A stretch of 64,000 nt of DNA, taken from Candidatus Bathyarchaeota archaeon. Its GTDB lineage: Archaea > Thermoproteota > Bathyarchaeia > Bathyarchaeales > Bathycorpusculaceae. The stretch spans positions 1 to 64,000 of the forward strand of contig CAWAKC010000002.1 of assembly GCA_963782525.1 (NCBI GenBank). The letters run 5' to 3'. Of this stretch, positions 4,982-31,657 are shown piece after piece; within the stretch, counting starts at the first letter, position 1; each line of letters begins with the position of its first letter. Position numbers and translations under genes: made by a program. A model generated the notes under the pieces. That model worked only from the letters and a program-made list of their open reading frames with translations, searched no databases and was not told the origin of the DNA.

Positions 4982-7900
4982 ATGAACAAACTAAGTATCC
5001 TAATAATCATACTTCTAATTTCGTTGTCACTTTGTGCATTTGAAAGTCTGCAAGTCAAAGCTCAAACAACTGAGGTTTCTGTTTCTGTTTCTGTGTCTTA
5101 TACTTCTATAGATAGGGGCAGTGGGACTTCTGTTTTGACAGCTACCGCTTCAGGCGGTATTGCTTATTCCTATCAATGGATGATGGAAGCACCCGGTCAA
5201 ACTGCTTTCTCCAATATCCCGAGTGCTACTGGAGAGATCTACACATTTACGCCTTCGAACTCTGCAACTCCGGGGCCCTATTACTTTGAAGTTTTTGTAA
5301 CTGAGCTGTCTACTCAATCTTCGGTGATGTCTTCAGCTGTATCTGTTACTGTGAATGCGGTTCCGATTGTGACTGTGTCGCCTGCTTCAGCGACGATGGA
5401 TGCGGGTCAATCTCAGTTGTTTACAGCTACGCCCTCTAGCGGTTCAGGCATTTACTCATCTTACAAGTGGTATGTAGACCTTGTACTTCAAAGTGGCACT
5501 GCTTCAACGTTTACATATTCACCAGGTTCCACGACGGGGTCACACTCGATCACTGCGATGGTTACGGATAGTTTAGGTGCAACTTCGGCTCAGTCTTCTG
5601 CTGCGTCTGTTACGGTGAATTCTGTTCCGACTGTGAGTGTTTCTCCTGTTGGTTCTCTTAAGATGGATGTTGGTCAGGTTCAGGTGTTTACAGCTACAGG
5701 TAGTGGTGGTTCTGGTGCGCTTTCGTATCAGTGGTATTTGGATGGTTCTTTGGTTTCTGGTGTTACTGGTGTGAGTTATTCTTATACTGCTGGGGGGTCT
5801 TCGCATTCCGTTACTTGTAAGGTGACTGATAGTGCTTCTGTGCCGGTTACATCTGGTGCTTCTAACGCTGTTTCAATCACTGTGAGTGTTGTTCCTACTG
5901 TTAGTGTTGCTCCTGTTTCTTGGACGATGAGTGTTGGCCAATCTGAGACGTTTACTGCTTCTGCTTCGGGTGGTTCTGGTGTGCTTAGTTATCAGTGGTA
6001 TTTGGGTGGTTCTGTTGTTTCTGGCCAGACCGGTTTAACTTACTCGTTTACTGCTGTTTCTGTTGGTTCACCTACGATTTACTGTAAGGTGACTGATCAG
6101 GCTGCTTCTCCGGTTACGGTTCAGTCTAACACGCCTTCAGTTACGGTGAATTCTGCACCGATTGTTTCTATTTCGCTTACTTCTTGGACTATGGATATGG
6201 GCCAATCTAAGAGCTTCTTAGCTGCTGCTAGTGGTGGTTCAGGCGTTTACTCTTCTTATCAATGGTATGTGGGTGGAGCTATTCAGTCTGGAGCTACTTC
6301 GTCAACGTTTAGTTATGCTCCTGGGTCTGTAGGTTCTTATTCGATTACTGTGACGGTTACGGATAGTTTGGGTGCAACTTCGGCTCCGTCTTCTGCTGCG
6401 TCTGTTACGGTGAATTCTGCTCCGACTGTTTCTATCTCTCCCACAGGCCCTTTTACGATGGATGTTGGTCAGACTAAGATTTTTACTGCTACTTCTCTTG
6501 GTGGCTCTGGCACTATTCATTATCAATGGTATTTGAGTTCTGGTTCTGTTGGGACTGACAGTTCAAGTTATACTTATACTGCGCCGGGATCTTCTGCTTC
6601 AATTACTTGTAAGGTGACTGATAGTGCTTCATCACCAGCTACATCGCTTGCTTCTAATGCTGTTTCAGTTACAGTGAATCCTGCTTTGGTTGCTCCATCT
6701 GTTTCTGCTTCTTTGGGTTCGATTAGTCAGGGTCAGACTAGTAGTCTGACTTCGTCTTCGGTGACGACGGGTTCTTCTCCTTACGCTTATCAGTGGTTTT
6801 CGAGGGCTCCTGGTGCTGGTTCTTACTCGTTGATTAGCGGTGCGACTTCATCTAGCTACTCCTTTGCTACATCGATTTCAACAGCTACCGGTAGTTGGAG
6901 CTTTATTCTTCAGGTCGGGGATGCAGCTAGTGCAATACTGAATTCTTCTGCCGTTTCGATTGTGGTAAATGTTCCACCTCTTGATCACTTTATTTTTAGC
7001 TCTATAGGTACTCAAACTGCAGGTACATCGTTTAGCATCATAATAACTGCTAAGGACGCTTCTAACAATACGCTTACAAACTATGTGGGAACTAATACTT
7101 TGAATGTTTCAACCGGAACTATTAGTCCGACTAGCACCGGTGCCTTCTCAAAGGGTGTTTGGACAGGTTCAGTGACTGTGACTGGGGCCAGTTCAGGAGT
7201 TACCCTTTTCACCACTGGTTTGAGCATGTCTGGAACAAGTAACAGTTTCAAAGTTAATCCTGGGGCTCTCAACCGCTTTACTTTTAGTACTATCAGTAGT
7301 CCTCAGACTTCGGGTTCTGCTTTCAGCATAACTGTTACGGCTAAGGATGTGTATGGAAATGTCGTTACCGGCTATATTGGGGGACCGTCTTTGACGGTTT
7401 CGTCGGGGTCAATTAGTCCAAGCACGATGGCTACTTTCGTTAACGGTGTCGGGTCAACTTCGGTTTCGGTGACCGGTGCAGCTTCAGGAGTTACCATTAC
7501 GGCTACTGACTCAATTTACACTGGAATCAGTAACTCATTTACTGTAACAGATGCTCCAACTTCAACTCTGTCACCTACTCCTACTTCAGCACCTCCATCC
7601 ACAATAGAACCCACTTCAACGCCAAAGTCAACAAGTACTCCAAAAGTTACTCCAACTCCAACAGCAAACCCATCGCCTTCTCCAACACCACTAGAAACGA
7701 CGGTAAAAGCTAAGACAGATAGTGGTGCAACCGTTAATCTTGCAATCAGCGGAAACATAACAAGTTCCCAGATGTCCAACGTCACGATTGCAACAAACCA
7801 GTCCACAAATTCAACAACAGTTTCTATAACAGTGACGGGCCAAAGCGGCAGCATAGGTTTTAGTAACATAACTATTCCGAAAACTGCGATACTCTATGGA

Positions 7901-8155
7901 ACAAACCCAGTTGTATTCATAGACGGCCAGCAAGCCACAACTCAAGGATATACCCAAGACTCACAAAACTTTTACGTATGGTACACAATGCACTTGAGTA
8001 CGCATTTAATGAAAATACAATTTGCCGTTTCTTTAAAGCCGCAAACATCGTCATTTGAGTCGCTTTTGGCTGTTGGAATAATAGCCCCTGAAATCGTTTT
8101 AGTCTACACAGTAATAGCTATTAGACGTTTGAGGCGAGGACCTGAAAATACATAA
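4982..8155 (+). CDS. Large surface protein with tandem PKD/Ig-like domains, Pro/Thr linker and C-terminal TM anchor
   Basis: Signal peptide; about seven ~88-aa units 'P.VSVSP....MD.GQ...FTA...GGSG...YQWY...CKVTDS'; two further 'F.FS.I..QT.G..FSI..TAKD' domains; TM then RRLRR. Confidence 0.9.
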   Translation: MNKLSILIIILLISLSLCAFESLQVKAQTTEVSVSVSVSYTSIDRGSGTSVLTATASGGIAYSYQWMMEAPGQTAFSNIPSATGEIYTFTPSNSATPGPYYFEVFVTELSTQSSVMSSAVSVTVNAVPIVTVSPASATMDAGQSQLFTATPSSGSGIYSSYKWYVDLVLQSGTASTFTYSPGSTTGSHSITAMVTDSLGATSAQSSAASVTVNSVPTVSVSPVGSLKMDVGQVQVFTATGSGGSGALSYQWYLDGSLVSGVTGVSYSYTAGGSSHSVTCKVTDSASVPVTSGASNAVSITVSVVPTVSVAPVSWTMSVGQSETFTASASGGSGVLSYQWYLGGSVVSGQTGLTYSFTAVSVGSPTIYCKVTDQAASPVTVQSNTPSVTVNSAPIVSISLTSWTMDMGQSKSFLAAASGGSGVYSSYQWYVGGAIQSGATSSTFSYAPGSVGSYSITVTVTDSLGATSAPSSAASVTVNSAPTVSISPTGPFTMDVGQTKIFTATSLGGSGTIHYQWYLSSGSVGTDSSSYTYTAPGSSASITCKVTDSASSPATSLASNAVSVTVNPALVAPSVSASLGSISQGQTSSLTSSSVTTGSSPYAYQWFSRAPGAGSYSLISGATSSSYSFATSISTATGSWSFILQVGDAASAILNSSAVSIVVNVPPLDHFIFSSIGTQTAGTSFSIIITAKDASNNTLTNYVGTNTLNVSTGTISPTSTGAFSKGVWTGSVTVTGASSGVTLFTTGLSMSGTSNSFKVNPGALNRFTFSTISSPQTSGSAFSITVTAKDVYGNVVTGYIGGPSLTVSSGSISPSTMATFVNGVGSTSVSVTGAASGVTITATDSIYTGISNSFTVTDAPTSTLSPTPTSAPPSTIEPTSTPKSTSTPKVTPTPTANPSPSPTPLETTVKAKTDSGATVNLAISGNITSSQMSNVTIATNQSTNSTTVSITVTGQSGSIGFSNITIPKTAILYGTNPVVFIDGQQATTQGYTQDSQNFYVWYTMHLSTHLMKIQFAVSLKPQTSSFESLLAVGIIAPEIVLVYTVIAIRRLRRGPENT
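5560..6419 (+). repeat. Near-identical intragenic 65-bp direct repeat (5560-5624 and 6355-6419) within the Ig-repeat gene
   Basis: ggttacggatagttt(a/g)ggtgcaacttcggctc(a/c)gtcttctgctgcgtctgttacggtgaattctg, 2 mismatches. Confidence 0.9.
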
Positions 8156-8286
8156 CTAAACCTTGAATCTGTAGCTTTCTGATCCTGAATCGAGGTTGGA
8201 ATTGCCTTTTTGATCACTGTTGCTGTGCAATTCGGATAACTTTCTGATCAAAGCTAAACCAAGTTGCTTGATTCTTAGGTGTTGGG

Positions 8287-8943
8287 TTATGTTATTCTGG
8301 TGGCGGTTTCAATAATGAATCCTTTTCTGCCCAGAGTATACGTTAACCTTCTTGTTGGGATTATCGTTCCTGACATTTTCCTTATAATCAAATGCCTCAT
8401 AGTCGAGTCTGCAGCCCAGTTTAATGCGAAGTTAATTGATCCTTCGGCAAAGTGATTCATGGTGGCATCAGCTTGAGGATCCTGCATGCCCTCGGTGAGC
8501 AGAAGAAGGTGGTAATTTAGGCCTTTTCTGTTTTGATGTGTCATAGCGGTCAATAGGCTAGCTATTTCTTTGATCTTGTGGATTAGCAGTAGCTCTGAGA
8601 CTGAGTCTATGGCAACTGTTCTGGATTGTTCCATTTCATCCAAAACGGCTTTTAGCATTACATTTGCTGTTGTATCTTTGAGGCTCTTGAATTTCCAAGA
8701 CTGTGCTTCTTCAAAGGGCAATGTGTCCCATCCATAAGCTGCCATATCTTCCCTGATGCTTTCGGCTGTAGTGTTCACAGTGAAGTAGGTTACTGGGCAC
8801 GTCTTTACCCTGTTGAATAAGACTTGTTTGGCGAAGACTTCGTTGCCTGAACCTGGCGCTCCCGAGAGAAGTATGATTTTTGGGGGCAACCCACCCATTA
8901 AGAATTCGTCAAGGCCAGCAATTCCTGTCTTCACAATCTTCAT
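8287..8943 (-). CDS. RAD55/KaiC-like RecA-superfamily ATPase with degenerate Walker A
   Basis: 'VKTGIAGLDEFLMGGLP...LLSGAPGSGNE', 'AIDSVSEL', 'RHLIIRKMSG'. Confidence 0.85.
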   Translation of the reverse strand: MKIVKTGIAGLDEFLMGGLPPKIILLSGAPGSGNEVFAKQVLFNRVKTCPVTYFTVNTTAESIREDMAAYGWDTLPFEEAQSWKFKSLKDTTANVMLKAVLDEMEQSRTVAIDSVSELLLIHKIKEIASLLTAMTHQNRKGLNYHLLLLTEGMQDPQADATMNHFAEGSINFALNWAADSTMRHLIIRKMSGTIIPTRRLTYTLGRKGFIIETATRIT

Positions 8944-9169
8944 TGGCAGTCATCTTTTTTGGTATTCAATATCGTTTAGCTTAGTTATAACTTTTGTATC
9001 ATTGAAGTATTGATTACACATTCAACTCGTTATCCCAGTCGATAACTAACAGTTAGATGGTCTTACTTTTTCTGATGCATGTCAGAATTTGATAGACGAT
9101 TAATTCATCAAGCTTTTAAGTACCAAGGGCTAAGTAAAATCAACAATCAACAAAGGAGAAATAAATAAA

Positions 9170-9625
9170 ATGAATTTCGGAAAAACAATAAGAAAATTCC
9201 GTAGAAACACACGCGCAATCTCACCAGTAATAGCCACTCTGCTAATGATAGCCATTGCAGTCGTCGCATCCCTGGTCACATATGCTTGGGTCATGGGCTA
9301 CATGAACTTCACAACAGAAAAGACCGGTAAAGCAATACAAATCCAAAGCGTCAGCTACGCTCCAGCCACTCATATATTTACTGTATATGTGCAAAATGTC
9401 GGTGACACTGATGTTCAATTTCCAACTGCTAACGCAGCAAACATTTTCATTAATGGCGCAGTAGCTAACCCTATCACTGGAAATGTTGCTACCCTCGCGA
9501 AGGGTTCTACCGTAACATTGACTGGTACAATGGCTTTAACACCTGGCGTACAATCAGTAACTATCAAAGTGACGACTACTGACGGAACCTTTAGTCAAAC
9601 AACTCAGCAATTCACCATAACTTAA
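9170..9625 (+). CDS. Archaeal type IV pilin (probable major pilin)
   Basis: Class III signal peptide 'RRNTRA|ISPVIATLLMIAIAVVASLV'; SD-like AAAGGAG upstream; T-rich tract downstream. Confidence 0.9.
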   Translation: MNFGKTIRKFRRNTRAISPVIATLLMIAIAVVASLVTYAWVMGYMNFTTEKTGKAIQIQSVSYAPATHIFTVYVQNVGDTDVQFPTANAANIFINGAVANPITGNVATLAKGSTVTLTGTMALTPGVQSVTIKVTTTDGTFSQTTQQFTIT

Positions 9626-9718
9626 ATCCTGTAAGCGTGAATTGTTTTGAGCTTTTTCCTTTTTTATTTTTTTAAGTTTATATGCGAAAAAAAATATGTG
9701 TGAGGGGGCATCGCTGAG

Positions 9719-11398
9719 TTGACATCTTACAAGAAACTATTATCTCGCAAAAAGCCAGCAGAGGTTTCAAAATCTGCAGAAGATTCACAATCAAAGATAA
9801 AGAAGAATAAGAAAACTTCATCCCCCAGAAAAATATCTTTGTTCACTAAAAAAAGCAAATTAGAAGTTCCTGTTACTCTAGTTCCCGAGATAGCGACAAC
9901 TGCCCCAATATCCGAGCCAGTTAACGAGAAAGTGCTCGAAACTTACTCACTTATTGAGCCTTATTGCCGCGTGAATATTGTTAAGGATTTGGATAGGGGT
10001 AATATCAAATATGTTGTTGAGGAGCCTAAACTCACAACTGATGATGAAGTCCACCTTAAGCGGTTAAAAGAAATCCTCAATCAAGTAATTACTTTGAAGC
10101 CGGCAGATTTACAGTCAAAAGACGCTGCTGGAAAGTACCTTGTAACCAAGAGCAAGGAGATTTTTAATGACTATGATTTCAAAATCGATGAAGCAACTCA
10201 AAATAGGCTGCTCTATTGCATAGTTAGGGATAATCTTGGTTTTGGAAAAATAGATTCGTTAATGCATGATCAATTAATCGAGGACCTTTCATGCGATGGA
10301 GTCAACATTCCAATATTCGTTTGGCACCGCAAATCCGAATCTATTCCAACCAACATTCGATTTGAAACGGAAGAAGAACTTGACTCGTTCGCTTTGCGTC
10401 TCGCGTATATGTGTGGAAGCCACGTATCAATCGCTCAACCATTATTGGACGCCAGTTTGCCTGATGGCAGCAGAATCAATCTCACTTACGGCAAGGAGGT
10501 AACTCGAAAAGGATCAACTTTCACCATAAGAAAATTCAAACTCGACCCATTCACAGTAACTGATTTAATCACCTTTGGCACAATTTCGGCGGATATGGCC
10601 GCTTTCTTTTGGTACGCAGTCGAAAACCGAGTATCAATTCTAGTAGCCGGTGGCATTGCAGCTGGCAAAACAACTCTTCTAAACTGTTTAAGTATGTTCA
10701 TTAAAGCTGACTTAAAAGTCGTGTCAATCGAAGACACGCCCGAAATCAATCTTCCGCACGAAAACTGGATTCCAGCAACCACAAGATCGCATTTCGGCAT
10801 AGCCACAGATTCAGCGGACGTAACATTATTCGATTTGCTTAAAGCTTCTTTGAGACAAAGACCAGACTATATCATAGTGGGAGAAATCAGGGGAACAGAA
10901 GCATACACACTCTTCCAAGCAGTAAGCACGGGGCACCTTGGAATGTCAACTGTCCACGCCGAGTCAGTTGAATCAGCCGTTTACCGTTTAGAATCAGCAC
11001 CAATGAACATACCTCGAACTCTTATCGCGGGCATAGACATTATTTTGGTTCAAAAGCGAGTCGAAATAAAAGGTAAACCCATGCGAAAAACAGTTGCGGC
11101 TTCAGAAATCGTCGGTTTAGATCCCCGTTCAGGAGAAATTTTAACAAACGAAGTATACAGATGGAACGCAACAGACGAAACATTCGATTATACTGGCCGA
11201 AGTTACATTCTTGAGAAAATTGCAGAGAAAACGGGTGTAAGCATCGAACAGGCCGAAGAAGAACTCAAAAACAGGAAAAAAGTAATTACCTGGATGGCAA
11301 AGAAGAACATTCGCAATTACAAGGACGTATCAAACATTATTCGCTCTTATATGGAAAATCCTACACGCATACTTGCGGAGGCACTAAAAGACGAATAA
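9719..11398 (+). CDS. Type IV pilus / type II secretion assembly ATPase (FlaI/VirB11/CpaF family)
   Basis: Walker A 'GGIAAGKTT', 'SIEDTPEI', 'SLRQRPDYIIVGEIRG', 'TGHLGMSTVHA'. Confidence 0.95.
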   Translation: MTSYKKLLSRKKPAEVSKSAEDSQSKIKKNKKTSSPRKISLFTKKSKLEVPVTLVPEIATTAPISEPVNEKVLETYSLIEPYCRVNIVKDLDRGNIKYVVEEPKLTTDDEVHLKRLKEILNQVITLKPADLQSKDAAGKYLVTKSKEIFNDYDFKIDEATQNRLLYCIVRDNLGFGKIDSLMHDQLIEDLSCDGVNIPIFVWHRKSESIPTNIRFETEEELDSFALRLAYMCGSHVSIAQPLLDASLPDGSRINLTYGKEVTRKGSTFTIRKFKLDPFTVTDLITFGTISADMAAFFWYAVENRVSILVAGGIAAGKTTLLNCLSMFIKADLKVVSIEDTPEINLPHENWIPATTRSHFGIATDSADVTLFDLLKASLRQRPDYIIVGEIRGTEAYTLFQAVSTGHLGMSTVHAESVESAVYRLESAPMNIPRTLIAGIDIILVQKRVEIKGKPMRKTVAASEIVGLDPRSGEILTNEVYRWNATDETFDYTGRSYILEKIAEKTGVSIEQAEEELKNRKKVITWMAKKNIRNYKDVSNIIRSYMENPTRILAEALKDE

Positions 11399-22138: not shown

Positions 22139-22711
22139 CTATTTCACTTCTACTTTGTGCTTTTTAGGCGCTGGTACAACGGTCTTCTTTGGGATGCAAA
22201 CTTCAAGTAATCCGTCTTTAAATGTGGATTCTGCTTTCTCCGGGATTACTTCTTCGGGGAACGAGAGCTGTTTGTAAACATGCGAGTAAACGCGTTCTCT
22301 AACAACAAAGTTCTTCTGCTTGTCTTCCTTTTCAACGTCTGTTTCAGCCGAGATTTCAATACCCTCGTTGGTCAGGGCAACGTCAATCTTGTCTTTCGCT
22401 ACGCCAGGCAATTCAGCATGCACCACAAACCTGTTTCCCTCATCAACCAAATCTACAGTTGCCTCACGAACTGGAGCATAAGGTTCAACACTTACCCAAT
22501 CCCATGGAAAAGCTACGCTTTCAATAAAATTTCTTCGAAAATCCTCAACCAAATCGTCAAAAGTCGTTAGAACATGAACTGCGGGAAGGTGCTTTGCAGG
22601 AACGCGTTTGGCGGGAAGGTGTTTAGCAGGAATATTTTTTGTTGGTTTTACTGCGATTTCAGCTTTTTCAATCGCTTTCACCGGTGCCTTTTTTTCTTCT
22701 TCTTTAATCAT
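22139..22711 (-). CDS. hsp20: Small heat-shock protein Hsp20 with N-terminal PAKxx repeats
   Basis: 'VDLVDEG..FVVHAELPGV.KDKIDV', 'RER', 'FKDGLLEV.IPK'; GAGGTGA SD before ATG 22711. Confidence 0.93.
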   Translation of the reverse strand: MIKEEEKKAPVKAIEKAEIAVKPTKNIPAKHLPAKRVPAKHLPAVHVLTTFDDLVEDFRRNFIESVAFPWDWVSVEPYAPVREATVDLVDEGNRFVVHAELPGVAKDKIDVALTNEGIEISAETDVEKEDKQKNFVVRERVYSHVYKQLSFPEEVIPEKAESTFKDGLLEVCIPKKTVVPAPKKHKVEVK

Positions 22712-22852
22712 TTTTTTCACCTCTATTAATCTTATTACCATGATAGTAACCTTGAATTATCCCAGTTCTTTCTGCAACTGCGTCCCACTGCAATTTCTTT
22801 GGAGATTTTTCAAATCCCTTTACTAAACTCGTACTGAAAACCATAAATGCTT

Positions 22853-25675: not shown

Positions 25676-26404
25676 ATGAATAACACTGTAGGAGACGTTT
25701 TCCAAATCGAGACAAAGTACCTGCGCAACAAAGGCCTTGGCGGAAATCTGGACTGGGCAAATAAGCCTGAAATCTACAAGGGCTATCCAACCAGTAAAAC
25801 AATTCAGCTGCCAAACCCACTCCAAAAAGCAACTCCCAGCTTTGTTGAAGTTCTTCAAAAACGCAAGAGCATACGATCCTTCTCAACACAGCCCTTGAGC
25901 AAAGTTGATTTGGCTTTTCTTCTATGGGCCTCTACTGGTATACAAAGAGCTGAACACGGTTACGCGTTCCGTACAGCTCCGTCGGCTGGAGCATTATATC
26001 CTATCGAGACATACATAGCTGCAAACAACGTGGAAGATGTGGAGAAAGGAGTTTATCACTATAACATACAGAATCATTTGTTGGAAGAAATAGTACTTGG
26101 AGATTTTGGAGTCAAATTAGCCCACGCAGCCTTGGATCAAGAGATGTGTGCAGACGCTTCCACTGTCTTCATTTGGACGGCTGTTTTTAGGAGATCAAAG
26201 TGGAAATATTCCCAGAGAGCCTACCGGTACATCTATTTGGATGCAGGACACATTGCACAAAATTTGGCGTTGGCGGCAGCAAGCATCACTTGTGGGTCCT
26301 GTCAAGTTGGGGCTTTTTTTGATGATGAAGTTAATTCGATAGTGGGTATAGACGGAATCGAAGAGAGCATAATCTGTCTTAGCGTAGTTGGATATCCCAA
26401 ATGA
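25676..26404 (+). CDS. SagB/ThcOx-family nitroreductase (FMN-dependent dehydrogenase)
   Basis: 'KRKSIRSF', 'RTAPSAGALYPIETY', 'RAYRYIYLDAGHIAQNL', 'GAFFDDEV'. Confidence 0.92.
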   Translation: MNNTVGDVFQIETKYLRNKGLGGNLDWANKPEIYKGYPTSKTIQLPNPLQKATPSFVEVLQKRKSIRSFSTQPLSKVDLAFLLWASTGIQRAEHGYAFRTAPSAGALYPIETYIAANNVEDVEKGVYHYNIQNHLLEEIVLGDFGVKLAHAALDQEMCADASTVFIWTAVFRRSKWKYSQRAYRYIYLDAGHIAQNLALAAASITCGSCQVGAFFDDEVNSIVGIDGIEESIICLSVVGYPK

Positions 26405-26524: not shown

Positions 26525-27805
26525 TTACTTAATATCTTTGGCAAGCAGTCGTACTGCATTCAAAGCTGACAAAGCCGACGTTTCCATGCTTGAGACCGAA
26601 GGCTCAACTGCATTGATATACATGAACCGTTTATCAATACGTGTTGAAGGCAGCTTAGTGACTGGCTTGAATATAGGGTAGGCGGCTTTCCAACAATGTT
26701 CCAAAACCGTAACTCCGCCACTTTTGAATACACCGTTGAATATGTTGGAATCAAAGGGGTTTGGTGAAGAAATTGTCACCAATGACTCGCCATTGCTTGC
26801 TTTTTGAATGCCAAAGTGAGTTATTGGATCTGCATCTTTTGTAGTCAACACTATAGCTGGAGGGTTAGCTGATTTTTTCAGCCCGAAGTAGTCTGGATCA
26901 AAAATGCCCTTCATAACCCGCCTGTATACAGCCTGATAAGGCTGAGGTGCCCGGCTATGCAGGGATAAGCCGTTAAATTCTATGTCAGCAAGTTCTAAGG
27001 GCGTAGCGACAATAACGCTGTCGAAAACCTCCGTCTCAGTTTTTGTGTATAAAAGGTAAGTTCCTTTAGAAGTCTTTTCTATCCTGTCAACTTTTTGACC
27101 CAATTTAATCGCCGCTTTCGAAGCATTCGCAAGGCTAACGGGCAAACTGCTGTTACCCTCAGCCAAACTATAGGTTGGTCCTGAGTAAACACCAATCAAA
27201 GCCGAAAGCCCGGCGAAGCCCCCCAAGTCTGCGTTCTGAGAGTATATGACCCTTGTAATTGGCGTTACAACTTCATCAATGAAGGCTTGGCTTACACCTC
27301 TCTCAATCAATTCTTCCAAAAAAGACATTTTGGGCCATTTATCAAGACCTGCGGATTCAAAAAGTTCTTCGAAGTCGGAGGGATTTTTTTGTTCTTCTTG
27401 GTATAGGTTGGCCACTTGTCCTTTTACTTTTTTGAGAAGCAAGAAAGTTCGCGCTAAGCTCAGCCTATATTTAGAAAGAAGGCTAAAGATAGTGGCAAAG
27501 GATTGCTTGTTTGACCTAAAAACAACTTCTGAGCCATTCCAAACCGCAAAATCTTTGGGTTCTTCAACGGGTGCTATTTTTAGTCGCTCAGCTTTTATTG
27601 TGCCTAAAAGCGTCCTGTTGAAACGGTTGAAGAATGCAGCGCCCATTTCTATGCTGACGCCAGATTCATTGTATGTTCGGATTCTACCGCCTATTCTGTT
27701 TTGAGAATCGAAGATTGTCACGTTTAGGTTTGGAAGGTATTTGCGTGCAAAATAGGCAGCTGAACAACCGCCTATACCAGCACCAACGATTGCTAAATTC
27801 GCCAT
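26525..27805 (-). CDS. FAD-dependent oxidoreductase, prenylcysteine oxidase/lyase (PCYOX1)-like
   Basis: 'AIVGAGIGGCSAAYF', 'IGGR', 'FIDEVVTPITRVIYSQ', 'DSVIVATPL', 'W.AAYP.FKP', 'YINAVEPSVSSMETSALSALNAVRLL'. Confidence 0.8.
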   Translation of the reverse strand: MANLAIVGAGIGGCSAAYFARKYLPNLNVTIFDSQNRIGGRIRTYNESGVSIEMGAAFFNRFNRTLLGTIKAERLKIAPVEEPKDFAVWNGSEVVFRSNKQSFATIFSLLSKYRLSLARTFLLLKKVKGQVANLYQEEQKNPSDFEELFESAGLDKWPKMSFLEELIERGVSQAFIDEVVTPITRVIYSQNADLGGFAGLSALIGVYSGPTYSLAEGNSSLPVSLANASKAAIKLGQKVDRIEKTSKGTYLLYTKTETEVFDSVIVATPLELADIEFNGLSLHSRAPQPYQAVYRRVMKGIFDPDYFGLKKSANPPAIVLTTKDADPITHFGIQKASNGESLVTISSPNPFDSNIFNGVFKSGGVTVLEHCWKAAYPIFKPVTKLPSTRIDKRFMYINAVEPSVSSMETSALSALNAVRLLAKDIK

Positions 27806-27984
27806 CTCATATTCGGAAATATATGCTCAAATAATAAGATAAACCTAAGTGTAGAGATGTGCAGTGTGAAAGTTAGTTGCCACCTAATGGTTCTGTTGCT
27901 GGCTTAGCAACAGCTAAGCTCAAAGAACTGCGCCCTTAATTTTCGCAGTGAACATTTAGCACACTACTCTATGAGCAATATTTT

Positions 27985-28881
27985 CTATAATATTGGGTTT
28001 ATTTTCAACAAGCTGCTCAGCATTAGGCTTAGAGTGAACACAATAGCTACGATCACAAAATCCTTGGATAACACTTCGCCTAATTTGAAGAGTTTTTGTG
28101 TGTCTGCTTTGTCTTTTTTGAATAGTGTTTGCCTTTTTTGGATTAAACGCAAAGTGATGAAGCTCGCAAGAGTCACCAAGGTAGCATAGTAAATAATTGA
28201 CAGCTGAAATAATACGCCTACTAGAACCATAAGTGGAATCATGACGTATCCCAATGTGACAGTTAAGAATAAGCCACGTCTAAAACCCAAAATAATCGGT
28301 ATAGTTCTTGAGCCACTGTGGAAGTCCGAGGCAAAATCAGCCAAATCCTCCCACAAACTGTTCACTGCTGTTGTTACGCCGATAAGCAAAATCAATATTA
28401 TTATGTTAATTGAAAACAAGTTGAAGAACGCTGCAATAATCATAATCGGAACCGCACCCACTGTAAAGTTAATGATTGGTTTGTAGGTGGTTTTTCGCAG
28501 TCTGAAGGGTGGAACGGAATAGATCACTCCAAAAAAGATGCCTATACCCACAAATAGTAGCACAAACGGCATCAATGTTGCAGCACCCAACATTAGGGAC
28601 AGGGTGGTAAACGCAACCGCGATAAAGAAACCAAACTTACCCAACTTCTTAGTGAACTTAGCCCGCACTGGATCAGACAAAACATCCAAGTCCACATCAC
28701 AAATGTTATTCATGGCATCAACAGCACTCCAAATACAAAAAACGATTACACCAAGAAAAAGCGCTGCAGGCCAAACGAGCGCTTGGCCCATAAGAAATGT
28801 TGTTCCAACTGAAATCATGAAGAGCATCAGTCCCCGTTCAACAGAGATAAATTGGGCAAAGCCCTTCAAATCTTGGAGCAT
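27985..28881 (-). CDS. UbiA-family prenyltransferase
   Basis: 'MNNICDVDLD', 'YSVPPFRLRK', 'EDLADFASD..SG.RTIP' motifs; about 8 TM segments. Confidence 0.88.
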   Translation of the reverse strand: MLQDLKGFAQFISVERGLMLFMISVGTTFLMGQALVWPAALFLGVIVFCIWSAVDAMNNICDVDLDVLSDPVRAKFTKKLGKFGFFIAVAFTTLSLMLGAATLMPFVLLFVGIGIFFGVIYSVPPFRLRKTTYKPIINFTVGAVPIMIIAAFFNLFSINIIILILLIGVTTAVNSLWEDLADFASDFHSGSRTIPIILGFRRGLFLTVTLGYVMIPLMVLVGVLFQLSIIYYATLVTLASFITLRLIQKRQTLFKKDKADTQKLFKLGEVLSKDFVIVAIVFTLSLMLSSLLKINPIL

Positions 28882-29873: not shown

Positions 29874-31657
29874 ATGAATATATTTGCTCTGCTTTCGTTA
29901 ATCGCTAGCATTAGTTGCCTTTTTCTAGGTATAGTAGTATATTCATTTAACAGAAAATCAGTTCTTAACAAAATTTTCTTTTTGACGGCTTTAGCGGCTT
30001 TTTTTTATTCATTTACCACGTTATGATGTGGACAGCAACCAACTTTGCAGGTGCTAATTTCTGGAACAAGATGGGCACCGCCTGGCCTTTTTTCGTGGCT
30101 CTAGTAGTTACGTTTGCATTAGTTTTCACAGAAAGCAATTGGATAAAAAACAAACTAAACTACCTAATTCTATTTTTGCCTGCAGTGGCATTTTGGATTG
30201 TCGATTTATCCACCAGCCTAATAAACGGTCCTCCAGTCATGGAATATTGGGGGTACAATGACGTTGCCTCTGGAACATTGGTTTACTATGGTTCCATCAT
30301 TTGGACCGTAGCTCTGCCAATACTGGCATTTGTTCTATGTTTCAGATACTATCGCAAGGCAGAAGACAACATGCAGAAGCAACGAAGAAAATATGTAACT
30401 ATAGGCTTTGCCATTCCCATAGCTGCATTCATAAGTACTAACATGGTTGCTCGTATGATTCAAATGGGCATTCCAAATCTTGGGTTCATAACTACACTAT
30501 TTTTTAGCGGTTTTGTTGGATACGCTGTTGTGAAATATGACTTATTTACTTTTGATGCCGTATTAGCCGCAGAAAACATACTTATAACAATGCCTGATTC
30601 ACTCATACTTGCCGACGTGAAAGCAAAAATCCTCAGAGTAAATGAGCGTTTAGCCAATTTCATTGGTTATGAAAAAGAGGAATTGATCGGTAAATCAATA
30701 ACAAAATTATGTACAGAAAACGAAGAAAAAACTTGCGCAAGCCTTTTAAAAGAATTAGCAATCGAGAGGATAATTAGAAACCGCGAACTGACCTTCCAAA
30801 GTAAATCCGGCATAAAACTAAACGTATTTTTTTCAGGTTCAATTGTCAAAAGTAAAATGGGACGCGACATCGGAATAGTGTGTATAATACATGATATTAC
30901 CGATATGAAAAAGATGGAGGAAAAACTTGTTAAAACAGAAAAGCTTGCTTCCATAGGCGAACTGGCAGGGCAAATTGGACATGACCTGCGCAACCCTTTA
31001 GCCGGTATTAAAAACGGAATATACCTCATTAGAAAGAAAGACAAGACACTCGCAGAAGCAAAGAAGGAAGAGATTTTTAGAGTGATTGAGAACGCAATTG
31101 AAGATTCAAACAGAATTATCACTAGTTTAGTAGATTATGCAAGCGAGCTTAATCTGCGACCGGAGCAGTGCACTCCTAAGTCGCTTACACTGCATGCGCT
31201 GTCTAACATTCAGGTCCCCGACCACTTGAACGTAATAAACAACACGACTGATGACGTCAAGATGCTCCTTGATGTGCAAAGCATGGAAAAAGTTTTCGCA
31301 AGCATAATAAAAAACGCTATAGAGGCCTCACCAGAAAGCGGAAGCATAAAAATACAAAGCGTGTTGAAGGGACAGAATATTGAAATATCTTTCACCGACT
31401 CCGGAATTGGAATATCCGAAAGCATTTTACCCAAACTCTTCGCGCCGCTTGTAACTACTAAGGCAAAAGGAATGGGTATGAGCCTAGCAATTTGCAAAAG
31501 AATTGTAGAGGCACATGGTGGAAAAATCGGCGTTGAAAGCGCAGTTGGGAAAGAAACAACATTCACAATTAACCTCCCAATCAAACTCTCGAAAAGTGAA
31601 TTCACGCAATTCCAGATGTTTGCAGGAATTGAAATGAAGCAGTCAACCTTTATTTAG
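29874..31657 (+). CDS. Membrane sensor histidine kinase (N-terminal multi-TM, PAS, HisKA, HATPase) with one frameshift near 30020
   Basis: ATG 29874 frame gives MNIFALLSLIAS...FFYSFTT and joins the 30023 ORF if one G is restored; H-box 'GHDLRNPL', 'NAIEA', 'DSGIGI', 'TTKAKGMGMSL'. Confidence 0.85.

Follow-up and report, generated by a model that had tools for sequence, protein, structure and literature searches.

Prenylcysteine oxidases carry out the last step in the disposal of CaaX-prenylated proteins and, to our knowledge, have been studied only in animals and plants. Here we analyze a member of this family encoded in a 64,000-nt stretch of DNA from a Candidatus Bathyarchaeota archaeon (assembly GCA_963782525.1, contig CAWAKC010000002.1, positions 1 to 64,000; hereafter the window). 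The oxidase gene has the gene of a UbiA-superfamily prenyltransferase directly upstream, and a first-pass annotation, made from the sequence alone, had read the two as a eukaryote-type prenylcysteine oxidase and its partner, possibly forming a module that makes and breaks a prenylated thiol or another heteroatom-prenyl metabolite. Our literature search, one query of which was poorly framed, returned no study treating an archaeal or bacterial member of the family.

The closest described system is mammalian PCYOX1, represented in the Protein Data Bank (PDB) by a reconstructed mammalian ancestral protein (9fxq; J Biol Chem 2024, PMC11530802) crystallized as a construct of residues 26-502 plus a tag. 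That article reports that the Y221A substitution abolishes activity and substrate binding, that V234W blocks the tunnel, that Y433A has little effect, and that an altered head group, such as that of salirasib, is accepted. The window oxidase is homologous to this protein from end to end at 28% identity and has in common with it the two-domain fold binding flavin adenine dinucleotide (FAD), the GxGxxG motif, two tyrosines (Tyr221/Tyr188 and Tyr433/Tyr376) and the C-terminal flavin-contact motif. It differs from PCYOX1 in having no signal peptide, in being ~50-80 residues shorter, in carrying Ser in place of the tunnel residue Val234, and in its setting, a host without detectable CaaX prenylation machinery. 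The second described relative is the plant farnesylcysteine lyase (FCLY; Fabaceae cluster P0176), which belongs to the same Pfam family and follows the same presumed salvage logic, the recovery of cysteine and a recyclable isoprenoid aldehyde; unlike the window oxidase, the plant proteins carry an N-terminal signal-like extension. A bacterial-like branch of the family is also uncharacterized. Its members have no signal peptide, are ~440-450 aa long and have conserved positions in common with the window oxidase, but they form a separate clade, and 8 of its 37 aligned rows have Phe for the key Tyr.

Family, fold and distribution of the oxidase

The oxidase and the elements upstream of it are as follows.

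26525-27805, minus strand: PCYOX-family FAD flavoprotein of 426 aa with no signal peptide (Pfam, PDB sequence match, AlphaFold2 (AF2) and Foldseek, residue map)
27806-27853, minus strand: conserved upstream block of the oxidase gene, a probable promoter by its pattern, with a core invariant in 13/13 aligned loci
27854-27984, minus strand: variable part of the spacer between the UbiA and oxidase genes, with two hairpins (spacer alignment, fold score)
27985-28881, minus strand: divergent UbiA-superfamily prenyltransferase of 298 aa (PF01040, 65.9 bits; motifs NNICDVDLD and DLADFASD)

Both open reading frames (ORFs) lie where the first-pass annotation had placed them, co-oriented and separated by a 179-bp spacer. 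The translated oxidase matches the Prenylcys_lyase profile PF07156 with 160.9 bits (E 5.9e-47; gathering cut-off 27 bits) over profile positions 3-354 of 363, a match that takes in the substrate domain, and scores 161.8 bits in the whole-genome scan. The generic Amino_oxidase model reaches 84.1 bits, 77 bits under PF07156, and NAD_binding_8 scores 54.9 bits; each sequence and fold test bears out the family call of the first-pass annotation. None of 14 well-known control genomes gave a PF07156 match in an identical search (0/14), which argues that the match of the oxidase is neither chance nor generic. Among PDB sequences, phmmer placed the ancestral PCYOX1 first (9fxq, E 1.6e-38, oxidase residues 4-420 against 13-457), with the second-best match 26 orders of magnitude off at E 1e-12. 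NCBIfam returned only N-terminal matches (residues 1-91) to PPOX, HpnE and CrtI models, far under their cut-offs; this collection apparently holds no PCYOX model, and its scan is uninformative for the family of the oxidase. We regard the oxidase as a true member of the PF07156 (PCYOX/FCLY) family, an assignment that is secure.

The motif order of PCYOX1, which the first-pass annotation had given end to end, is borne out at four places, where GAGIGGCSAAY (containing the GxGxxG motif as GAGIGG, residues 8-13), FIDEVVTPITRVIYSQ, DSVIVATPL and YINAVEPSVSSMETSALSALNAVRLL match exactly, whereas its W.AYP..KP is shifted by one residue, the translation reading WKAAYPIFKP. The absence of a signal peptide noted earlier agrees with the translation and the structure model: the protein begins MANLAIVGAGIGG, has no N-terminal extension, and enters its Rossmann strand at residue 3. 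Hydrophobic N-terminal extensions of 15-40 residues are found on eukaryote-like relatives, unlike the window oxidase.

Fold and active site were compared using an alignment of 128 family members, comprising 33 archaeal-clade, 37 bacterial-like and 58 eukaryote-like rows, with the groups set by the phylogenetic tree. The AF2 model built from it has a pLDDT of 96.0 and a pTM of 0.94 and replaced an earlier model from 16 close sequences (pLDDT 67.9), which was discarded. In a Foldseek comparison with the PDB the predicted structure finds 9fxq first (E 1.7e-35, TMq 0.89, 28% identity), the second fold being that of the nicotine oxidoreductase NicA2 (TM 0.70, 13-15% identity). PCYOX1 residue numbers correspond to the chain index +20, with which Tyr, Val and Tyr fit at all three mutated residues, and the phmmer alignment with 9fxq maps Tyr221 to Tyr188, Tyr433 to Tyr376 and Val234 to Ser201 of the window oxidase. 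Tyrosine occupies position 188 in 31/33 archaeal-clade, 28/37 bacterial-like and 57/58 eukaryote-like rows, and position 376 in 28/33 archaeal-clade rows. Position 201 is Ser or Ala in 21/33 archaeal rows versus Val or Ile in 53/58 eukaryote-like rows; Ser201, being small, is predicted to leave the tunnel open. The window oxidase keeps all 22 of the 22 near-invariant positions (at least 90% conserved in the 128-row alignment).

Relatives were collected in a scan of one genome per prokaryotic species with peptide patterns from the archaeal alignment, a search that says nothing on bacterial or other archaeal PF07156 members. It yielded 31 loci (L-numbers) with full-length or near-full-length oxidase matches of 43-91% identity, whereas the other 34 matches cover the N-terminal FAD motif only. 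All 31 of the full-length relative loci carry Bathyarchaeota, Bathyarchaeia or Thermoproteota titles, and the archaeal host assumed in the first-pass annotation is correct. At the level of genomes, 18 of 401 in the class, belonging to 6 of 131 genera, have PF07156, as do 12 of 120 in the genus. The oxidase is thus a patchy, dispensable accessory gene in Bathyarchaeia. A large protein collection holds at least 249 relatives; the 120 listed are mostly ~425 aa long and all have PF07156, and 31 among these 120 bear the name 'prenylcysteine oxidase/farnesylcysteine lyase' given by the Joint Genome Institute (JGI). In a library of representatives at 50% identity, the number of matching clusters is 136 with a threshold of E <= 1e-30 and 790 with E <= 1e-10. 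Several copies are broken by a stop codon or frameshift, namely those of L023 (8001-9083, then 9085-9279), L042 (7767-8672 and 8716-9273), L026, L038 and L041; such split or truncated copies may reflect gene decay or assembly error.

Proposed activity and candidate substrates

We favor, with modest confidence, a reading in which the protein is a cytosolic FAD-dependent isoprenyl-thioether oxidase used for the salvage of S-prenylcysteine-type compounds. By homology, the enzyme would take a hydride from the carbon that adjoins the sulfur in a thioether with a long isoprenoid chain. Hydrolysis of the product would give an isoprenoid aldehyde and a free thiol (cysteine), and the flavin would be re-oxidized by O2 with formation of H2O2. 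The substrate, either taken up from the remains of eukaryotes or derived from an isoprenyl-thiol conjugate of the archaeon itself, would provide cysteine and isoprenoid. The gene itself would be a stand-alone accessory oxidase gene of Bathyarchaeia, presumably transcribed from its own promoter, and its stand-alone character is suggested by neighbors that differ from locus to locus. O2 is a plausible co-substrate in this genome because a haem-copper oxidase subunit I (COX1) is present (270.9 bits), and one report describes related peat Bathyarchaeia as facultative anaerobes with an aa3 oxidase (PMC11619403).

Several observations weigh against this reading. The putative substrate is extrapolated over 28% identity from a mammalian ancestor. 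The genome, which is 95.8% complete, has no CaaX prenyltransferase detectable with the two profiles used (PF00432 at 18.6 bits, below its cut-off of 26.5 bits; PF01239 without a match); it lacks the host-encoded CaaX prenylation expected of a secreted or lysosomal, eukaryote-type PCYOX, offers no known endogenous source of farnesyl- or geranylgeranyl-cysteine, and obliges us to assume uptake from outside. COX1 is missing from 11 of the 18 PF07156-positive genomes of the class, and a COX1-rich family (f35) is without PF07156, so the oxidase does not go hand in hand with aerobic respiration, and an acceptor other than O2 could take the electrons. Finally, UbiA is the most frequent neighbor of the oxidase, with a second, divergent adjacency in L026, and a UbiA ortholog occurs in 10/12 oxidase-positive versus 22/108 oxidase-negative genomes of the genus, an enrichment that carries little weight among genomes that are close kin and not independent.

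Two further clues were considered and set aside. A link with O2 respiration was unconvincing, with COX1 found in 7/18 oxidase-positive versus 62/383 oxidase-negative genomes of the class. The locus L043, from a chromosome titled Ca. Bathyarchaeum tardum, has at 7850-11164 on the plus strand an oxidase homolog followed after 22 bp by cysK (TIGR01139, 460 bits, cut-off 351) and then by a serine O-acetyltransferase gene, cysE (NF041874, 157.6 bits, cut-off 150), all three being co-oriented. This gene order suggests a link with cysteine metabolism, which was rejected as a general clue because no more than 2 of the 36 sources searched have cysK close to the oxidase.

A less probable alternative, which we still take seriously, keeps the fold and chemistry and changes the compound: the enzyme would oxidize the carbon next to S, O or N in a native archaeal isoprenoid conjugate, for example S-archaeol-cysteine remaining after the turnover of lipoproteins, or lipid intermediates in the form of allylic geranylgeranyl ethers or esters. 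The lack of CaaX prenyltransferases in the genome speaks for such a substrate, as does the Ser or Ala at position 201, which hints at a tunnel shape other than that of the eukaryote-like proteins. The tolerance of PCYOX1 for a changed head group, shown with salirasib (PMC11530802), points in the same direction, and thioether-linked archaeol on cysteine has been demonstrated in Haloferax volcanii (PMC12462473). That article gives few predicted lipoproteins for TACK archaea, however, and one would expect an enzyme for turnover of core lipids to be more widespread than 18 of 401 genomes. The window oxidase has also kept the tyrosine responsible for binding the cysteine head group, and, on chemical reasoning, the carbon next to sulfur in archaeol-cysteine is non-allylic.

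The UbiA neighbor and the upstream region

The UbiA protein retains both Asp-rich motifs of its superfamily in its translation and passes the PF01040 gathering cut-off (34.2 bits), but it fits no curated subfamily: the BchG/ChlG model TIGR01476 gives 47.7 bits (cut-off 212.3) and the DGGGP synthase model PRK12882 34.1 bits (cut-off 296). Its nearest curated relatives are the BchG/ChlG synthases, and its best PDB match is a chlorophyll a synthase (E 0.012); the score is far under the 212 cut-off, however, and no tetrapyrrole genes are seen beside it. Its ESM-Atlas cluster, mostly from Bathyarchaeota, is automatically named BchG/ChlG-family. A 'functional bacteriochlorophyll a synthase' from a fosmid of the Miscellaneous Crenarchaeotic Group (MCG; Bathyarchaeota) is attributed to Meng et al. 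2009 in PMC3930316. The genome has five UbiA paralogs, including that of the window, one of which (L078) is DGGGP-synthase-like at 232 bits. A second divergent paralog lies on the same contig ~38 kb from the window gene and ~3 kb past the window end (G000:C2:66974-67651; 62.7 bits; PRK13591 107.8 bits, under its cut-off).

Gene neighborhoods were compared after ORFs had been called and clustered in the window region and the 31 loci, giving 32 sources, of which two (L021 and L036) have too little upstream DNA to judge the UbiA adjacency. A UbiA ortholog of 71-95% identity adjoins the oxidase in 7 of the 32 sources (7 of 30 assessable); it is upstream and co-oriented in the window, L015, L016, L018, L023 and L024, and divergent in L026. 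All seven fall in a single subclade, with 67% or more oxidase identity, and Pfam identifies no further UbiA-family protein among the 115 ORFs that flank the oxidase at a distance of up to two genes. In this set UbiA counts seven, MFS four, PALP three and rubrerythrin three ORFs, with at most three for any other family. On a tree of 29 oxidase sequences the adjacency needs four changes, at least three of which are forced by supported branches, and even within the tight eight-member clade around the window two members (L013 and L014) have lost it.

The two genes also occur apart. In the genus sample, where we assume the oxidase and UbiA ortholog counts to refer to the same 120 genomes, 10 genomes have both genes, two the oxidase only, 22 the UbiA ortholog only (32 with the ortholog in total) and 86 neither; among the 10 with both, the genes are adjacent in seven and on different contigs in three. 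At UbiA loci without an adjoining oxidase (L083-L095, three of them from genomes with an oxidase on another contig), a CheY-like receiver of ~131 aa is the conserved partner. It is present in 13/13 and lies upstream and co-oriented in 12 of the 13; in L095 it is downstream on the opposite strand. Between the receiver and UbiA there is sometimes a glucose/sorbosone-dehydrogenase-like propeller. This conserved association of a response regulator with a membrane prenyltransferase is unusual; the receiver gene is not biosynthetic.

The spacer gives a similar picture. Over the six co-oriented loci its length varies from 63 to 179 bp, and it is unconserved except in the ~50 nt immediately preceding the oxidase start. 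There a TTTATC-TTAT core (27834-27843), beginning 38 nt before the oxidase ATG (27805), is invariant in all 13 aligned loci, six with UbiA upstream on the same strand, one with UbiA divergent and six without UbiA. Since the core is kept whatever the upstream gene, the block is probably the oxidase's own archaeal promoter, with a TATA box and TFB recognition element (BRE) suggested by its pattern and position. This promoter-like element seems to travel with the oxidase gene. The variable part holds two overlapping, mutually exclusive perfect hairpins (27893-27919, minus strand; GCTTAGC/GCTAAGC and CTGTTGCT/AGCAACAG) that occur only in the window, apart from a degenerate version in L024; the RNA fold z-score of the spacer is an unremarkable -1.15, which supports no structured element. 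Rfam gave no match on the whole window, and a scan for sigma-70 promoters and terminators, with models not applicable to archaea, gave counts no higher than in shuffled sequence.

Public sequencing runs cover small shares of the stretch (0.28 at best), and four of them were analyzed as contigs. Wetland metatranscriptome contigs, 90-95% alike, cover 26562-27007 and 27141-27389 of the oxidase and are weak evidence of expression, as DNA can occur in such a library; no RNA contig bridges UbiA and the oxidase, which proves nothing either way. Contigs 90-99% alike come from freshwater-sediment, peat and rhizosphere DNA. One peat DNA contig spans the spacer (27821-28268); another departs from the window sequence at 27851, upstream of the oxidase.

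The make-and-break module, in which UbiA would prenylate a thiol or heteroatom metabolite and the adjacent oxidase remove the prenyl group as one functional unit, is improbable on these data. It is the reading that the co-oriented pair in the window and five further loci, the divergent pair in L026, the top rank of UbiA among flanking families (7/115) and its presence in 10 of 12 oxidase-positive genus genomes, adjacent in seven, would lead one to expect. Against it stand the confinement of the adjacency to one subclade with repeated changes on the tree, the 22 genomes with UbiA only, the two with the oxidase only and the three with both far apart, the receiver as conserved partner in 13/13 UbiA loci without an adjoining oxidase, the variable spacer, and the upstream element that the oxidase keeps for itself. 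We also know of no UbiA-family enzyme that makes thioethers. The linkage proposed in the first-pass annotation is therefore not conserved. Each of the two genes is dispensable without the other, and their pairing is lineage-specific and mostly an accident of one sublineage, in which an uncharacterized prenyltransferase became the neighbor of the oxidase; a loose functional tie may exist between the two.

Other genes of the window lie on both sides of this pair.

22139-22741, minus strand: Hsp20 with a long Lys/Pro/Ala-rich N-terminal extension (Pfam)
25676-26404, plus strand: SagB-type nitroreductase-fold dehydrogenase, the convergent downstream neighbor of the oxidase (TIGR03605, 137.7 bits, cut-off 78.4)
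30023-31657, plus strand: 7TM-PAS histidine kinase (Pfam)

The Hsp20 gene is syntenic only in the closest relative, L024. A SagB-type ortholog lies beside the oxidase in only two sources, the window and L013, with a more distant one 3.6 kb off in L043; we treat this dehydrogenase as a stand-alone context gene not shown to be part of the oxidase feature.

Origin and significance of the archaeal branch

The term 'eukaryote-type' used in the first-pass annotation is right as to the family but too strong, because the best-scoring matches outside the archaeal clade belong to the bacterial-like branch, at 205-184 bits (205 for P0137, 190 for P0140) against at most 167 for eukaryote-like rows. P-numbers denote cluster representatives of the 50%-identity library; 30 representatives were looked up, four clusters carried an organism name, and the labels 'eukaryote-like' and 'bacterial-like' of the remaining 26 follow length, N-terminal signal-like segments and clade membership. 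The representative of P0140 is a protein named from a 'Bacillota bacterium' metagenome-assembled genome, and an Atlas cluster with PF07156 is 59% Bacteria, most commonly Actinomycetota. The named eukaryotic anchors are the Fabaceae FCLY cluster, a Wickerhamomyces protein and a EukProt sequence.

A family tree of 62 rows was built with IQ-TREE under LG+C20 and repeated under LG+G4. Under LG+C20 the archaeal-type rows form one clade (support 94 in the Shimodaira-Hasegawa-like approximate likelihood ratio test, SH-aLRT) and the bacterial-like rows another (96; only 45 under LG+G4). The archaeal clade groups with fungal, EukProt, protist-like and signal-peptide-bearing rows, and the plants lie across a branch with SH-aLRT 95; with this nesting, the eukaryote-like rows do not make up one side of any branch. 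Under LG+G4 the supported branches no longer force the nesting, and the best tree in which the eukaryote-like rows are kept together is 36.25 log-likelihood units worse and not rejected by the approximately unbiased (AU) test (p-AU 0.134). With the bacterial-like branch the family extends beyond eukaryotes; the prokaryotic root suggested as a possibility in the first-pass annotation is left undecided by the tree. As judged from these alignments, archaea may have been either giver or receiver of the gene relative to eukaryotes.

Two readings of this history deserve little credence. In the first, the gene was recently acquired from a eukaryote, or is a eukaryotic fragment binned in error, and has no settled archaeal role; for this one may cite the LG+C20 placement with fungal, EukProt and signal-peptide-bearing rows, plants lying across the supported branch, and the patchy distribution in the class. 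The oxidase is surrounded, however, by archaeal-type genes on a contig that measures at least 116 kb, and 31 more Bathyarchaeia/Thermoproteota loci carry intact, signal-peptide-free copies of ~425 aa down to 43% identity, a divergence that implies long residence under purifying selection; the nesting, moreover, is not forced under LG+G4, where the alternative is not rejected. The second, which we hold to be equally doubtful, makes the archaeal and bacterial-like proteins ancient prokaryotic isoprenyl-thioether oxidases ancestral to PCYOX/FCLY, whose native job would be the turnover of archaeal S-isoprenoid conjugates. Within it, the candidate conjugates, similarly doubtful, would be archaeol-cysteine anchors or the product of the adjacent BchG-like UbiA acting on a thiol or carboxylate. 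By far the least probable is that a generic amine oxidase, protoporphyrinogen oxidase or CrtI-type desaturase has been mislabelled through the shared FAD domain, as the N-terminal NCBIfam matches under their cut-offs and the 84 bits of the Amino_oxidase model might suggest, because PF07156 is ahead by 77 bits with the substrate domain included and the PCYOX1 structure leads both in sequence, by 26 orders of magnitude, and in fold (TM 0.89 versus 0.70).

The family name is already assigned automatically in at least one public annotation (JGI), and the label 'eukaryote-type' for the PF07156 family is inaccurate. The archaeal oxidases are a new, unstudied branch of a known enzyme family, well conserved and free of signal peptides, from a class of archaea in which no CaaX machinery is seen. 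The lack of such machinery implies either that these archaea of soil and sediment harvest cysteine and isoprenoid from eukaryotic debris, as in the salvage reading favored above, or that the family's substrate is a different and older one. The window oxidase is small, looks soluble and resembles the form already expressed in E. coli. If the reading as ancient oxidases of archaeal isoprenoid conjugates were true, it would be the first enzyme for the catabolism of archaeal isoprenoid lipids bound to proteins or metabolites.

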